In this document: one piece after another, positions 5,459 through 16,116 of the stretch
Numbering within the stretch: the first letter of the stretch is position 1
How the letters are laid out: each line of letters opens with the position of its first letter
DNA from: a virus
DNA length: 17,807 bases
Reading direction: 5' to 3' (one strand)
Virus genome (UHGV): UHGV-1943956
The notes under the pieces: model-generated
What the model was told of the DNA's origin: nothing
The model's input: only the letters and a program-made list of their open reading frames with translations
Databases searched by the model: none
Translations under genes and position numbers: made by a program

Positions 5459-5881
5459 TTATCGGGTGTCCATATCGAAGGTCGTAGCGAGTCGGTAATT
5501 GAACTTCCCGCGCTTCCAGTTCAGCAATACGCTTGCACCCATCAGAGATAACTCCCTCGTAATACTCGCGCTGCTCGTTGAGTTNNNNNNNNNNNNNNNN
5601 NNNNNNNNNNNNNNNNNNNNNNNNNNNNNNNNNNNNNNNNNNNNNNNNNNNNNNNNNNNNNNNNNNNNNNNNNNTCTTTCCCGTTCATCCAGTAGTGCCA
5701 GCACGGTTTCTGGTCCGGTCAGAAATTTGAAGGCATTGAGCGCATCAATATCCACACCGTAATCTTTAAGTTCCTGTTCACTTAACAAATCATCATCAGC
5801 TGGCAACATTAACAGGCGTTCCATTGCTGGAATTGCACGTTCCGCCACCTCACGCAGTGACTGGTAATTAATTTCGCTCAC
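5459..5881 (-). CDS. Ea22-like family protein, paralog 2, interrupted by an assembly gap
   Basis: GTG start preceded by aaggagg. N-terminus MSEINYQSLREVAE... and LALLDERER, which resembles lambda Ea22. The reading frame crosses a 90-nt N run, so the 3' part and true length are unverified. Confidence 0.45.
   Translation of the reverse strand: MSEINYQSLREVAERAIPAMERLLMLPADDDLLSEQELKDYGVDIDALNAFKFLTGPETVLALLDERERXXXXXXXXXXXXXXXXXXXXXXXXXXXXXXNSTSSASITRELSLMGASVLLNWKRGKFNYRLATTFDMDTR
5585..5674. other. Assembly gap (run of 90 N)
   Basis: Ninety consecutive ambiguous bases. The real length and sequence are unknown. Confidence 0.99.
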
Positions 5882-7384: not shown

Positions 7385-7966
7385 TTACTTAATATCTGTT
7401 TCGGATTGCATGCCATGAGTATTCATTTCGTTAATAATTTCATCCAGAAGGATTTCAAGCCCTTCTCGACCCATATCTGAAAGAATGAAACCTTTATCAG
7501 GGGAAGTAGTGAGCATTTTCTGATAAAGAAACAGCGCTCTTCCCATTCCTTCAGTTTCGCCGTATTTTTGAATTAAATTCCATTCAATATACTGTTGTAA
7601 GGCAAATCGAATGGGGCCGGGATATATCGTCATAAACCCATACATCCCGTTATATACCACGGCGTGTTCAGTTGTTCCGTGTTCATTCAGGATATCAATT
7701 GTGCCGTTCTTGTCTTCTTCTTCGTTGATGAATGTCGTCACATACAACCATCGCCACTGAGCAACCTTCATCTCAACCGGAAGTTTACCCAGTAATCCTG
7801 CTTCGTCGGCTTGCGCCAGACACTGAAGGATACGTAAACCTCGCACATTAGGAGTATCGAATTCTCCGGCATCCAGACGACGTATGGCGTCGTGATAATC
7901 AATCGTCATACTGCCAGTTCGTATACCATTGGCTGTTGCTTCAGCCTGGAATTCATCGTATTGCAT
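7385..7966 (-). CDS. Hypothetical protein (193 aa), no recognisable family
   Basis: SD gagga upstream of the ATG at 7966. Starts 5 nt after the stop of the upstream 62-aa acidic ORF. Confidence 0.6.
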   Translation of the reverse strand: MQYDEFQAEATANGIRTGSMTIDYHDAIRRLDAGEFDTPNVRGLRILQCLAQADEAGLLGKLPVEMKVAQWRWLYVTTFINEEEDKNGTIDILNEHGTTEHAVVYNGMYGFMTIYPGPIRFALQQYIEWNLIQKYGETEGMGRALFLYQKMLTTSPDKGFILSDMGREGLEILLDEIINEMNTHGMQSETDIK

Positions 7967-7971
7967 GATAT

Positions 7972-8160
7972 TTATTCCTCATCTTCATCTTCATCTGCTG
8001 GTGCAATAACGTCATATCCTGCCTTTTCTGCAATAAACAGGAATGTTGAAAGAGTTCCTACAAGTTCATCGTCATGAACATGGCGAATGAATATTACTTT
8101 CCCGTTTTTGATGGTCAGCAATATTCTGGTTTGTTCGTGTTCTGCTGTTTTCTGATGCAT
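7972..8160 (-). CDS. Hypothetical small protein with polyacidic C-terminal tail (62 aa)
   Basis: SD gggag upstream. C-terminus APADEDEDEE. Immediately precedes the 193-aa gene. Confidence 0.5.
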   Translation of the reverse strand: MHQKTAEHEQTRILLTIKNGKVIFIRHVHDDELVGTLSTFLFIAEKAGYDVIAPADEDEDEE

Positions 8161-12303: not shown

Positions 12304-12524
12304 TCCGCCACATCGTTAATTCCCTGTATCACCGATACAACCGTTGCCCCCGTGTGGGGCAGTGGTTCGCCACCAGCAACGGTCACGTTCTGCGGGTTTG
12401 CCTAGTCAACGCTGAAAGCCAGAAAGTCGTGTGCGAACTACAGGGGCGTAGCTACACCATCAGTTACCCTCTGGCGGTATTTCTGTCTGGAAAAATGTTT
12501 AAGCGTCTGGGAGGTGTGGCGTGA
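12300..12524 (+). CDS. Hypothetical small protein (74 aa)
   Basis: Start overlaps the upstream stop. In-operon position. Confidence 0.5.
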   Translation: MIRHIVNSLYHRYNRCPRVGQWFATSNGHVLRVCLVNAESQKVVCELQGRSYTISYPLAVFLSGKMFKRLGGVA

Positions 12525-12820
12525 ACTGTTTTCAGTTTGTGTGCGGATGTGCTTTCGATAACCCGATTCAGCGCCTGATTATGTTGCGTGTTTTGATGTC
12601 GGGTTCTTCAGACGGTGAAGGCGAGAGAGTTATTGATCATCAGGTGCTTGCTGATTTCTGCTGTTGTTCTAAGCAAGCGATATTCAGGGAAACCCTGGCA
12701 CTGGAAAGAGCTGGTTATCTTCATATCCGAAAAATTGCAACGCTTACTATTGATGCAAAAGCCAGACTACAACCTGCGCGTGGCTACACAATTCTCATGC
12801 CGCGGAAGGAGGTTGTATGA
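12521..12820 (+). CDS. Hypothetical protein, possible DNA-binding (99 aa)
   Basis: GTG start preceded by ggagg. Its stop overlaps the start of the O-like gene. Confidence 0.55.
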   Translation: MNCFQFVCGCAFDNPIQRLIMLRVLMSGSSDGEGERVIDHQVLADFCCCSKQAIFRETLALERAGYLHIRKIATLTIDAKARLQPARGYTILMPRKEVV

Positions 12821-13809
12821 GCCGTTACGCCCCCACACCGGAAGTTATGGCTATTGGTCAAATTAATATTTCCGGCAATGTTACACCTGCGAACTGGTGG
12901 AAATATATTCGACTACCCAGTGGGCGTCCGGATGCGACGGCTATCGCTCTGCTTTCAGAGATCGTTTACTGGTACCGCCCGACAGAGGTCAGGGATGAGC
13001 ACACCGGAGCGTTGCTGGGATATCGCAAGCGTTTTCAGGGCGACAAACTGCAAAGAAGCTACCAGGCGTTTGCTGAGCAGTTTGGTTTCGGGAAAAGGGA
13101 AACCGCAGATGCGCTGAAGCGTCTGCGCGATGCAGGGTTTATTACTCTGGATTTACGCACGGTGGAAATGCTCGATGGGGTGAAATGCAGCAATATTTTG
13201 TTTGTCGGGATCAACCCACAGGCAATTGCGGCCATCACCACACCTTCTTCTGTTTCGCCAGAAAGTAACAGCAATAATGCAATCAGCGATACAGCTATTA
13301 CGTTAAAACGGAACACCCCCCGACGTCATAACGGAACAGGGGATACGCCGAATGTTGATACAAATACAGAGATTACTACAGAGATTACAACGGAGACTAA
13401 AAACACTATTGATGCGTCCGCTGACGCGTCTGCGCCAGCGCGTTCTGCCCGACAGGAATATTCACCGGAATTTGAACAGGCCTGGCAGGAATATCCCAAA
13501 CGTGCTGGTGGCAATTCCAAGTCAGCAGCCTTCAAAGCCTGGAAAGCCCGTATCAGGGAGGGAATAAAACCGGAGACCATGCTTGATGGCGTGAAGCGGT
13601 ATGCCGCTTGGGTACGTGCTACAGGAAATACCGGCACACAGTTCGTGAAGCAGGCTGCGACGTTCTTTGGACCCGATCGTCACTTCGAAGATTACTGGCA
13701 ACAGCCAGCCGCTCACGGAGGTGGGCGACAGCGACAGGTCGATGTCCTGGCTGGCCTGGGAGCCATGTCTGACAAATTCGGTAAATCCAGTAACAAATTG
13801 ACATTCTGA
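12817..13809 (+). CDS. Putative replication initiation protein (O-like replisome organiser)
   Basis: Strong SD ggaaggagg. Directly precedes the DnaC-like and DnaB-like genes. Has a low-complexity linker (TEITTEITTETK, DASADASA) and a conserved-looking C-terminal block EFEQAWQEYPKRAGGNSKSAAFKAWKARI. Function assigned from position and architecture. Confidence 0.65.
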   Translation: MSRYAPTPEVMAIGQINISGNVTPANWWKYIRLPSGRPDATAIALLSEIVYWYRPTEVRDEHTGALLGYRKRFQGDKLQRSYQAFAEQFGFGKRETADALKRLRDAGFITLDLRTVEMLDGVKCSNILFVGINPQAIAAITTPSSVSPESNSNNAISDTAITLKRNTPRRHNGTGDTPNVDTNTEITTEITTETKNTIDASADASAPARSARQEYSPEFEQAWQEYPKRAGGNSKSAAFKAWKARIREGIKPETMLDGVKRYAAWVRATGNTGTQFVKQAATFFGPDRHFEDYWQQPAAHGGGRQRQVDVLAGLGAMSDKFGKSSNKLTF

Positions 13810-13819
13810 GGTGACAGCG

Positions 13820-14719
13820 ATGATGACGATTGACCAACGTGAGAAACAAACAAGACTACAGGCGCGAATGGATGAGTTACGGGCAGAAATGGATGAGTTA
13901 CGGGCAGAGATTGCATTTGCTCAGAAGGGCGAAAAGCCATGGCCTTATCGTTCCTGCCTGATGCGTGAAGGTCGCGGATATTGCGAAAAACACGGTAAAT
14001 ATCGTACGCATATACTGGTGTGGATCGATCGTAATGGCGAGGACAGAGAAAAAATTTCATGCTGCCCTGACTGCTTGATCGCTGAGGCCAGTGATTTGAC
14101 CATGGAACTGTCGTCCCTCAAGGCGGAAGAACTGACTGATAACGCCGGAATTGCTCTGCGTTTTCGGGACTGCGAGTTTGATAATTATCTGGAGGTTAAT
14201 CCTGACGCAGCCAGAAATCTTGCGGCCTGTCGCCGCTATGCGGAGAACTGGCCAGATATGCTGGAGAACGGTACCAGTCTTGTTATGACCGGCAGTTGCG
14301 GTACCGGGAAAAATCATCTGGCGGTATCAATGGCAAAACACATCATCCGTAACTATCTGGCCAGTGTGGAGATCACCGACGTGATGCGCCTTACCCGGGC
14401 TGTGAAAAACTGCTGGCGGAATGACAGTGAAAAAACAGCGGATGACGTCATTGAGCATTATGCGTCACTGGATTTGCTGATTGTCGACGAAGTCGGCGTT
14501 CAGTTTGGCAGTGCGGCTGAAATGGCCATTTTGCAGGAAATTATCAATGCCCGGTATGAGGGTATTTTGCCAACTATCCTGATCAGCAACCTTTCACCGG
14601 AAGAATTGTGGGCGTTCATCAGTCCCCGGATTGCCGACAGAATCACCGATGGCGGGCGCAACTGGTTGTCGTTTAACTGGCCCAGCTACCGTTCTCGTAT
14701 CGGAGGTGTTGCCGCATGA
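13820..14719 (+). CDS. DnaC-like helicase loader (AAA+ ATPase) with N-terminal Cys-cluster extension
   Basis: Walker A GSCGTGKNHLA and Walker B LLIVDEVG. The ATG at 13820 is preceded by gaggtg. N-terminal cysteines (C..C...CC..C). Confidence 0.85.
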   Translation: MMTIDQREKQTRLQARMDELRAEMDELRAEIAFAQKGEKPWPYRSCLMREGRGYCEKHGKYRTHILVWIDRNGEDREKISCCPDCLIAEASDLTMELSSLKAEELTDNAGIALRFRDCEFDNYLEVNPDAARNLAACRRYAENWPDMLENGTSLVMTGSCGTGKNHLAVSMAKHIIRNYLASVEITDVMRLTRAVKNCWRNDSEKTADDVIEHYASLDLLIVDEVGVQFGSAAEMAILQEIINARYEGILPTILISNLSPEELWAFISPRIADRITDGGRNWLSFNWPSYRSRIGGVAA

Positions 14720-16116
14720 CCAGCCAGAACACCCCGGCATGGCGTAACGATGACCTGGAAGGCGCTGTCATCGGTGCGTTTTTTCTGCGTGGGGCCGATC
14801 CGGAAGTGATGGATATTCTGGCCACACTTCCGGCGGATGTATTTTTTGTGCGTCAGTACCGGGATATTTACGCGGGGATTTGCAGACAGGCTCGCATATC
14901 CGGCGTCATTGACCCCGTACTGCTGTGCAATGAGATGCCGGAACTTGCCCCGGTGATTACCGACACCGGACGCAAAACCTGGGTGAAGTCTTCACTGGAG
15001 CACTATGTCGCAGCGTTGCGGCGCAATGCCGCACTGCGCGATGCAGAAAAAACACTGACTGAAGCATTACAGAATTTACGTGATGCGTATACCTGTGAAG
15101 CAGCCGAGGATGCCCTGAAGGATGTGCAGAACATGATGGCCTCACTGTCGACCGGAAAGGGCGTCATTCAGCCGGTTCACATTGATGATGTCCTTCCGGA
15201 AGTGGTCGACCGTGTTGAATGCCGCAATCAGGGACTGGAGAAATCCAGGGCGCTGATGACCGGTATTGATGAACTGGACGCAAAAACGGGCGGTATGGAG
15301 CCCGGAGACCTGGTATTCATTGCCGCCCGTCCTTCGATGGGGAAAACCGAACTTGCGCTGGACATCATCGACAAGGTGACTGAGCAGGGGCATGGCGTGC
15401 TTCTGTTCACCATGGAGATGGCGAACATCCAGATTGGTGAACGTATGGTGTCTGCTGCCGGTGGAATGCCGGTATCCCGTCTTAAGTCTGTTGCCCGTTT
15501 TGAAGATGAAGACTGGGCGCGTTTCTCGCAGGGCGTGGGACGAATGACGGGGCGTAATATCTGGATGGTGGATCAGGCAAACCTGACCATTGATGAGATA
15601 TGTGCAACCACGAAGCACCACCGGATGAAACACCCGGAAACGGCGCTGGTGGTGGTCGATTACCTCGGTCTGATTAAAACCCGCAGCACGGGGCGTCACG
15701 ACCTTGCTGTGGGGGAAATCTCAAAGGGACTTAAAAGCCTGGCAAAATCCGGCGGTTTCCCGCTGATTGCTCTGAGCCAGCTCTCCCGAGGCGTGGAATC
15801 CAGACCCAATAAACGTCCCATGAACTCAGACCTGAAAAACTCCGGGGAAATAGAGGCTGATGCCGACATCATTCTGATGCTTTACAGGGATGAGGTGTAT
15901 AACCCGGATACACAGGCCAGAGGCATAGCAGAAATCAACATCACGAAACAGCGTAATGGCACACTCGGGACCATTTACCGGCGTTTTCATAACGGACATT
16001 TTCTGCCTGTGGACCAGGAGAGTGCCCGGGTTCTTTCCACACCCATGACGCCGGGCAATCCGCGCAGATACAGCAATAACCGCATGTCGGGCAGTAAAAC
16101 GGAGCGTTTATTTTGA
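14716..16116 (+). CDS. Replicative DNA helicase, DnaB family
   Basis: 466 aa. Walker A ARPSMGKTELALD, Walker B-like VVVDYLGLI, and DnaB-like C-terminal motifs. SD ggaggtg. Confidence 0.9.
   Translation: MTSQNTPAWRNDDLEGAVIGAFFLRGADPEVMDILATLPADVFFVRQYRDIYAGICRQARISGVIDPVLLCNEMPELAPVITDTGRKTWVKSSLEHYVAALRRNAALRDAEKTLTEALQNLRDAYTCEAAEDALKDVQNMMASLSTGKGVIQPVHIDDVLPEVVDRVECRNQGLEKSRALMTGIDELDAKTGGMEPGDLVFIAARPSMGKTELALDIIDKVTEQGHGVLLFTMEMANIQIGERMVSAAGGMPVSRLKSVARFEDEDWARFSQGVGRMTGRNIWMVDQANLTIDEICATTKHHRMKHPETALVVVDYLGLIKTRSTGRHDLAVGEISKGLKSLAKSGGFPLIALSQLSRGVESRPNKRPMNSDLKNSGEIEADADIILMLYRDEVYNPDTQARGIAEINITKQRNGTLGTIYRRFHNGHFLPVDQESARVLSTPMTPGNPRRYSNNRMSGSKTERLF

Follow-up and report, generated by a model that had tools for sequence, protein, structure and literature searches.

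A probable prophage replication origin built of two repeat modules within the linker-coding part of an initiator gene

An origin of replication that lies inside the gene of its own initiator is a known kind of system. Lactococcal P335-type phages carry the ori inside the organizer gene. In lambda, which uses P and the host DnaB, and in the Stx phages, the origin sits in the middle of gene O, where dyad-symmetric iterons 20-24 bp apart (the spacings in lambda are 20, 24 and 23 bp) have on their 3' side an A-rich tract that is readily melted. Two iterons, along with the AT-rich tract, are enough for unwinding and for replication in vitro, and the O protein binds AT-rich single-stranded DNA (PMC7466680). 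In phage SPP1, oriL lies inside gene 38 and comprises direct repeats and a DNA unwinding element (PMC6316719). Here we describe a locus of this design in the viral genome UHGV-1943956, a stretch of 17,807 nucleotides (the window; all positions refer to it) which is an E. coli prophage and shows 100% identity to a portion of strain AR_0013. Its replication initiator, or replisome-organizer, gene carries a pair of iteron-like repeats and, directly after them, an array of 12-mers, both within the part of the gene that encodes an inter-domain linker. From the sequence comparisons reported below, we consider it very probable that this segment, 13297-13401, is the replication origin of the prophage.

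The resemblance to lambda is one of layout. The origin of lambda and the candidate of the window both lie in mid-gene; in the window, too, the repeats are placed at the inter-domain linker of the initiator open reading frame (ORF), a tract of low duplex stability lies 3' of the iterons, and the same early operon continues with the replication genes. There are differences as well. Lambda has 4-6 iteron units against two to three in the window, its AT-rich tract is generic whereas the window has a sequence-conserved 12-mer array, and the window prophage, unlike lambda, encodes its own DnaC-like loader and DnaB helicase. The A-rich tract of lambda was also considered as a degenerate 12-mer array and was set aside as a resemblance only (best match 6-7/12 by eye, with no 12-bp period). 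With SPP1, the window shares the gene order of organizer (G38P), loader (G39P) and DnaB-type helicase (G40P), and a member of the present family, Geobacillus phage PT9.1, has a G39P-like loader as SPP1 does. The linker-coding DNA of SPP1 gene 38 also holds short tandem 11-12-mers: at 7920-8040 of the SPP1 locus (L092), four ACGAAAAAGAC-like copies are followed by three AACAATGATAAC-like copies. These repeats are, however, unrelated in sequence to the 12-mer described here, the family form of which, TACAGAGAWTAC, is absent from SPP1. A further analogy is offered by oriC, where a short conserved repeat, the 13-mers or DnaA-trios, stands directly beside the initiator boxes at the site of duplex opening and helicase loading. 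The 12-mer array may be likened to these elements as a short, sequence-conserved repeat directly beside the iterons; the initiator is a winged-helix organizer rather than the AAA+ protein DnaA, and the motif and the period are others.

In the window, AACGGAACA occurs twice, at 13307-13315 and 13330-13338, and the two copies are followed by a C6 run (13316-13321) and a G4 run (13339-13342), respectively. These positions, and those of three tandem 12-mers further on (13366-77, 13378-89 and 13390-401), had all been given correctly in the original prediction, a reading of the window's letters alone that placed a candidate origin here. The two 9-mers form the core of longer direct repeats, the 16-mers ACGTTAAAACGGAACA and ACGTCATAACGGAACA, which are identical at 14 of 16 positions and stand 23 bp apart. 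Since this offset is not a multiple of three, the two copies are read in different frames, and the peptides they encode differ (TLKRNT and (R)RHNGT); the repeat is therefore one of the DNA and not of the peptide. When the gene was dinucleotide-shuffled 300 times, no shuffle reached a 14/16 match at a distance of 8-30 bp. The proposal that the paired 9-mers are iterons needs refinement: the candidate iteron units are about 22-23 bp long, with a third, degenerate unit after the two good ones (Table 1). The spacings of 23 and 22 bp fit the family period of 22-23 bp. Unit 1 is homologous to ACGTTGAAACG(T/G)AACACCCCC of Serratia and Yersinia relatives, unit 3 pairs one-to-one with the third unit, ACGCCGAAAAGTGAGACGTA, of a Rosenbergiella relative (L013), and all three window units align with the units of that locus.

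The 12-mers begin immediately after unit 3. Their natural register is one base to the left of the one first proposed, with TACAGAGATTAC at 13365-76 and 13377-88, and Tandem Repeats Finder reports 13365-13396 with a period of 12 and 2.7 copies. The third copy, AACGGAGACTAA (13389-400), matches at 8 of 12 positions and is two mismatches away from TACAGAGACTAA, a variant that occurs four times in the family and forms the last copy in three of its loci (L016, L018 and L020). With at most one mismatch, TACAGAGAWTAC is found twice in the window against 0.07 expected. The stretch had been described as AT-rich, which holds only moderately for its composition (GC 0.35-0.40) and better for its behavior: a 37-bp stretch that covers unit 3 in large part and the first 12-mers is the least stable duplex of the gene, with -40.6 kcal/mol where the gene averages -51.9 (standard deviation 3.9), a difference of about 2.9 standard deviations. 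It also ranks within the ten non-overlapping stretches of lowest stability in the whole window. Neither motif was found again in the rest of the 17.8-kb window, in the way that SPP1 has oriR, and a promoter and terminator scan of the repeat region gave nothing above chance. Primase trinucleotides and DnaA-trio patterns in the 12-mer were considered and dropped as indistinguishable from chance.

The protein that is encoded around these repeats matches PHROG 270, 'replication initiation protein' (E 4.6e-78), and has no family in Pfam or NCBIfam by hmmscan at E <= 0.01. In a structure model generated with AlphaFold2 from a 77-sequence alignment, a confident N-terminal domain and a helical C-terminal domain are separated by a linker, at about residues 145-210, which is disordered with a predicted local distance difference test score (pLDDT) below 50. 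All the window repeats encode residues 162-195, inside this linker, and the earlier placement of the repeats between two domains thus agrees with the model. The N-domain has a winged-helix layout at the level of the fold, a helix-turn-helix (helices 82-89 and 93-105) followed by a beta-hairpin wing at 109-132 (strands 109-117 and 123-132), all with pLDDT >93. Its best matches are generic winged-helix proteins and are all weak (Foldseek E >= 6e-3; sequence and profile searches E >= 1.8e-3). No Pfam model describes this N-domain, yet it is widespread, with 140 protein hits in which it is fused to several different C-domains. For one relative, that of Bacillus phage 0105phi7-2, the annotators reported an HHpred match of the N-domain to TIGR01714 and named the protein a 'replisome organizer and ori-binding protein'; the ori is not discussed in the paper on that phage. 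The window N-domain matches neither TIGR01714 nor PF09681 (Phage_rep_org_N) in NCBIfam and Pfam at E <= 0.01, and its kinship to that family, if real, is remote.

How the segment varies among close relatives was assessed in E. coli, with eight alleles whose identity goes as low as about 90%. Both 16-mers are invariant among them. The only variable positions in 13297-13401 are 13318 and 13322, in the spacer, and with these the C6 run is not conserved. With two variable sites in 105 bp, the segment has a rate of 1.9 per 100 bp, compared with 7-20 in the part that codes for the N-domain and about 9 in the flanks; nothing else in the initial two thirds of the gene (12817-13480) varies so little. 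That the DNA of a disordered linker is the most conserved in this interval indicates a constraint on the DNA. The copy number of the repeats across related prophages, which the original prediction had suggested as a check, is 3, 4 or 6 for the 12-mer among these alleles, none of which lacks the repeats.

The conservation reaches much further than E. coli. The N-domain family has 353 loci among GTDB species genomes, 80 of which were compared (55 after dereplication). On the coding strand, the 12-mer is found with at most two mismatches in 69 of the 80 loci, 380-800 nt past the start of the N-domain match, where chance would give about 0.016 per locus. These 69 loci come from at least seven phyla and include Gammaproteobacteria, Rickettsiales, Bacillota, Atribacterota, Cyanobacteria, Chloroflexota and Thermodesulfobacteriota. 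Even where the proteins of gammaproteobacterial members are only 35-55% identical, TAT ACA GAG ATT ACT ACA GAG is kept codon for codon. Among the dereplicated loci, the second 12-mer copy, which was not used for selection, is conserved at 0.65-0.85 per position with the exception of a variable ninth base, and the junction motif AGAC(A/G)(A/T)A that precedes the array is conserved at up to 0.87 (logo range 0.65-0.87). The synonymous positions of the 12-mer are fixed as well, with ACA, GAG, A(T/A/C)T and ACT kept, while the invariant peptide YWYRP of the N-domain is written with five Arg and four Pro codons (third-position maximum 0.34-0.38) and the GC content of the N-domain ranges from 29 to 62% over the compared loci. 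In addition, 13 of 119 copies of the 12-mer lie in other reading frames, and copies are found at spacings of 11, 13, 23 and 25 bp; these frame assignments rest on ungapped offsets, except where a codon print-out checks them. An Acinetobacter locus (L026) illustrates the point, with a 13-bp spacing and the reading IQRIH|TEITTE, in which one copy is out of frame. The fixed synonymous sites, next to the free codon use of YWYRP, and the out-of-frame copies point to selection at the level of the DNA. Directly after the array, the C-domains to which this N-domain is fused are of many kinds.

One variant of the motif deserves separate mention. TACAAAGACTAC is present in three copies in locus L031 and in two in L079, and forms the first copy of a mixed array in L063 and L040; these lineages are uncultured Gammaproteobacteria, Rickettsiales and Thermodesulfobacteriota. 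Such a concerted change may reflect co-evolution with the initiator or homogenization by slippage.

The layout seen in the window is shared by the family. Two to seven lineage-specific repeats with a period of 22-23 or 44-47 bp, often dyad-symmetric, are followed directly by the near-invariant 12-mer array. A direct repeat of at least 12/14 within the 120 bp upstream of the 12-mers was found in 36 of the 55 dereplicated loci, compared with 3/55 and 4/54 in control regions; its period is 22-23 bp in 19 loci (one at 18 bp counted in) and 44-47 bp in 17. A perfect dyad with 6-bp arms is contained in the last unit of 14/55 loci; among control windows, the counts are 5/275 and 9/269. The arms vary by lineage while the symmetry is kept, as in TACGTT/AACGTA, CATGTA/TACATG, GTCCTA/TAGGAC, CTGTGG/CCACAG, TCTCCC/GGGAGA and TATTAC/GTAATA.

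The same arrangement, repeats of about 22-23 bp and then 12-mers, is present in five cultured phages: Geobacillus PT9.1, Bacillus 0105phi7-2, Bacillus PM1, Acinetobacter 5W and Eggerthella LE2-3, the last with a host from the Actinomycetota. In PT9.1, where the repeat unit is TGACGTTAGAACGTCA, there are four 23-bp units (TGACGTTagAACGTCA) and three 12-mers. The 24-mer of the array, TACAGAGAWTACTACAGAGAWTAC, occurs exactly in at least 120 contigs of IMG/VR. Among the matches listed (120 contigs), it is always inside an initiator-like ORF and always in the frame that reads TEIT. These ORFs are not all of one family: 87 have the present N-domain, 7 are incomplete, and about 26 have other winged-helix N-domains that the hidden Markov model (HMM) of the family does not detect, including the type annotated as 'O' in Stx phages (hhalign probability 20%). 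None of the N-domain types found with the 24-mer has a Pfam family. Periodic repeats (22-24 or 44-48 bp) are present within 120 bp upstream in both groups, in 15/17 and 14/16 dereplicated loci among the same listed matches versus 0-2 in controls. The array is thus shared by the present and the other N-domain types, an initiator superfamily whose members differ in their neighboring repeats. Window 13300-13400, with at least two coding-strand 12-mers directly 3' of repeats of 22-23-bp period in an initiator linker, fits this TACAGAGAWTAC-array grouping.

The array also marks the borders of exchange between phages. The C-terminal module of the window initiator is shared at 92-98% DNA identity with Stx-converting phages, phiP27 and PhiR49_2, whose N-domains are different. 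The match to the Stx1- and Stx2-converting phages starts at 13366 and that to phiP27 and PhiR49_2 at 13405-7 (megablast query positions 550 and 589-591); these are the two edges of the 12-mer array, and the N-terminal halves beyond them are unrelated. Judged by these breakpoints, the linker with the candidate origin is the point at which the modules of the initiator gene are exchanged. The phages that share only the C-terminal half each carry their own set of repeats at the linker position. PhiR49_2 (L007, 1040-1200) has a Pfam HTH_36 N-domain before the same C-module, and ATTCACCAGGTGGTGCA-like repeats, behind which GAACCAGTCA recurs every 12 bp; phiP27 (L008, 1040-1200), with the same domain composition, has TCAGAATCTGAAC-like repeats followed by two copies of AAAACATGATCCGCAAG. 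The linker repeats of these two phages suggest that a parallel two-module origin design exists in another initiator family. A different kind of break is seen in E. coli FDAARGOS_943 (L095), where an IS2 element lies directly upstream of an initiator gene that lacks its N-terminus. The break, at about window position 13239, falls at the boundary between N-domain and linker, such that the N-domain is gone and the origin repeats and part of the C-module are left; with the N-domain lost, this is a decayed prophage copy.

We can now consider how such an origin might work. The anatomy of the region, its conservation at the DNA level, the quantised periods of its repeats and its low duplex stability are direct observations. 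Binding, melting and loading are what we infer from them, and the following steps are proposed in that sense. In the first module, two good units and a degenerate one, each of 22-23 bp and with the cores ACGTYAWAACGGAACA, would be the lineage-specific sites of the N-domain; as these sites are dyad-symmetric in relatives, they would probably be bound by dimers. The second module, the TACAGAGATTAC array directly 3' of the iterons, would be the DNA in the gene that melts most easily, and the iteron-bound initiator would destabilize it. The C-domain would then recruit the DnaC-like loader and the DnaB-like helicase that are encoded immediately downstream, and the helicase would be loaded on the opened 12-mers. 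The full reading, an origin with iterons bound by the N-domain and 12-mers as the melting and helicase-loading element, we regard as likely on the sequence evidence. The division of roles by itself, with the dyad repeats as specificity iterons and the 12-mers as the site of melting and loading, is favored with somewhat more reserve. In the original prediction, the 12-mers were an AT-rich element, and this description falls short: they are not mere filler but a motif that is kept across phyla, and in subfamilies whose iterons differ, so that they are probably recognized by sequence. Recognition could be by a conserved feature of the initiator, for example as single-stranded DNA after melting. 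It is possible, and no more than a tentative proposal at this point, that the TACAGAGAWTAC array is an ancient, nucleotide-conserved origin element of a winged-helix organizer superfamily in at least seven phyla, recognized in a sequence-specific manner, plausibly as single-stranded DNA, by a conserved surface of the initiator while the origin melts or the helicase is loaded, with the 22-23-bp dyad repeats providing lineage specificity.

Several observations weigh against this picture. Only two well-formed iterons are present in the window, and their dyad symmetry is poor (by eye about 5/6 for unit 1 and about 3/6 for unit 2; 4/6 for the 30 nt that precede the 12-mers). The AT content of the 12-mer tract reaches only about 60-65%, and the window has several intergenic stretches of lower stability than the 37 bp described above. 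Although related proteins share iteron types, covariation between the residues of the recognition helix or wing and the iteron arms could not be separated from shared phylogeny. The analogy to the lambda and SPP1 origins is architectural only. The gene had been called 'O-like', which is apt for its design only, since no homology was detected: there is no hit to the lambda O family (PF04492, Phage_rep_O) in Pfam at E <= 0.01, hhalign of the family alignment against lambda O gives a probability of 0.3%, and the PHROG matches labelled 'O-like' are weak (6e-07 and 8e-05) and span the low-complexity linker. Homology of the N-domain to SPP1 G38P was likewise given up at an hhalign probability of 0.3%. 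A further difficulty, the co-occurrence across phyla of a near-invariant 12-mer with a strongly conserved N-domain (invariant features YWYRP, R54, D76, L78, Y82, K93, R114 and N126), leads to the alternative that the roles are reversed. The TACAGAGAWTAC 12-mers would then be the primary double-stranded sites of the N-domain, and the 22-23-bp dyad repeats would serve autoregulation, control of specificity or incompatibility, or a second factor, with the region still an origin. The short tandem 11-12-mers in gene 38 at SPP1 oriL would suit this alternative as well. We nevertheless find it unlikely, given that the same array is used by at least three N-domain types which the family HMM misses, that dyad repeats at about two helical turns flanking a melting tract are the iteron arrangement of lambda, and that the copy number of the 12-mers drifts among near-identical prophages.

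Three further alternatives were considered. The array could be mainly a recombination linker, a micro-homology for swapping N-terminal (origin) and C-terminal (loader) modules, as the mosaic junctions at its edges and the joining of one N-domain to many C-domains right after it would lead one to expect. Usefulness in recombination alone, however, would not fix a sequence across phyla that are unable to exchange phages, and it leaves unexplained both the obligatory adjacency to the 22-23-bp repeats and the fixed polarity; we consider this very improbable and the exchange more likely a side effect of a site conserved for its function. It could also be that the tract has no function in cis and is a slippage-prone, low-complexity sequence for a flexible TEIT linker, next to a 9-mer pair that arose by chance. 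The tract does encode a disordered linker, its copy number varies, and all the exact 24-mers among the listed IMG/VR matches read in the TEIT frame. This explanation is strongly disfavored by the synonymous sites, which stay fixed over the whole range of GC content while other invariant residues use all their codons, by out-of-frame copies such as that of Acinetobacter, by the 16-mers in two frames that no shuffle reproduced, and by the low variability of the segment among the E. coli alleles. An element of the mRNA, either a structure or a translational pause signal, has hardly any probability left. The dyad units of relatives could form hairpins in the mRNA, but the window segment folds no better than its shuffles (z = -0.14), has no match in Rfam, and contains units that are barely symmetric and 12-mers that are unstructured. 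An origin with iterons beside a melting tract, in DNA that doubles as the code for a protein linker, was what the original prediction had proposed, and the architecture found throughout the family, in the 80 loci, the contigs and the five phages, supports it.

While the placement of the origin follows a known pattern, two features of the present system appear to be new: an array of 12-mers, seemingly sequence-specific and shared across phyla, instead of an AT-rich tract of the generic kind, and the undescribed superfamily of winged-helix N-domains attached to it. The 12-mer as an origin element is not described in the literature that was searched, which omits most subscription journals, and a prior description is possible. 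It is unusual for a 12-bp motif to stay constant across phyla while the protein around it diverges to 35-55% identity, and this implies a conserved, undescribed contact of protein with DNA, or with single-stranded DNA, in origin opening. The stretch is also dual-coded, with a cis element and the code for a protein linker in the same DNA, and its array edges coincide with the exchange points of the modules for origin specificity and loader specificity. In practical terms, most origins of temperate phages are unmapped, and the two-module signature places a probable origin within about 100 bp. It applies to an E. coli prophage of hundreds of clinical genomes, to phages of Bacillus, Geobacillus, Acinetobacter and Eggerthella, and to many uncultured lineages. 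If the 12-mer array is indeed an ancient origin element, it would be a phage counterpart of the oriC 13-mers or DnaA-trios, and the 24-mer alone would serve as a one-line origin marker for many uncharacterized phages, with at least 120 viral contigs carrying it. The motif could be a starting point for predicting origins, for designing replicons derived from phages, and for decoy-origin (Per-type) constructs that give phage resistance.

The features of the locus are collected in Table 1.

Table 1. Coordinates of the candidate origin, its initiator gene and the replication genes that follow.
Feature	Position	Strand	Basis
Replication initiator / replisome-organizer gene, with the candidate origin inside	12817..13809	+	ORF, 330 aa; PHROG 270
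N-terminal winged-helix domain, aa 1-141, presumed origin-binding	12817..13239	+	AlphaFold2 pLDDT 93-98
Iteron unit 1	13300..13322	+	Core ACGTTAAAACGGAACA 13300-15 and variable C-rich spacer
Iteron unit 2	13323..13344	+	Core ACGTCATAACGGAACA 13323-38; 14/16 to unit 1, out of frame
Degenerate unit 3	13345..13364	+	ACGCCGAATGTTGATACAAA; ends in the family junction motif GA(g/t)AC(A/G)(A/T)A
Least stable duplex stretch of the gene	13351..13387	.	Nearest-neighbour profile
12-mer array, proposed melting / helicase-loading site	13365..13400	+	TACAGAGATTAC x2 and terminal AACGGAGACTAA; encodes TEITTEITTETK
C-terminal module, presumed helicase-loader recruitment domain	13405..13809	+	PHROG 1701 'DnaD-like helicase loader' E 1.3e-38
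DnaC/IstB-like helicase loader gene	13820..14719	+	Pfam IstB_IS21 E 4e-14; PHROG 50 'DnaC-like helicase loader' E 1.4e-87
DnaB-family replicative helicase gene	14716..16116	+	Pfam DnaB_C E 1e-73; TIGR00665 DnaB E 2.9e-92

A few observations on the surroundings of the initiator gene may be added. At least 80% of a 1.2-kb query from the locus is carried by 220 of 5426 complete genomes. Upstream, a 99-aa ORF (12521-12820) overlaps the start of the initiator gene by ATGA and has a match to PHROG 4617, 'replication initiation protein', in the N-terminal part of that family (E 2e-29); in some genomes, a gene within this interval bears the PGAP label 'LvrA C-terminal domain-related protein'. Far from the locus, at 5585-5674, the window has a run of 90 N, which are masked or unresolved bases. 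Downstream, the start of the DnaC-like loader gene was set from the PGAP annotation of alleles, and the match of its product to the NCBIfam DnaC model is below the cutoff. Near this start, at 13867-13908, there is a perfect 21-bp tandem duplication, two copies of AATGGATGAGTTACGGGCAGA, by which MDELRAE is encoded twice. The loader-gene alleles of E. coli are annotated as either 879 or 900 bp long, and the 21-bp difference between these annotated lengths, which were not taken from an alignment, would fit the presence or absence of the duplication.

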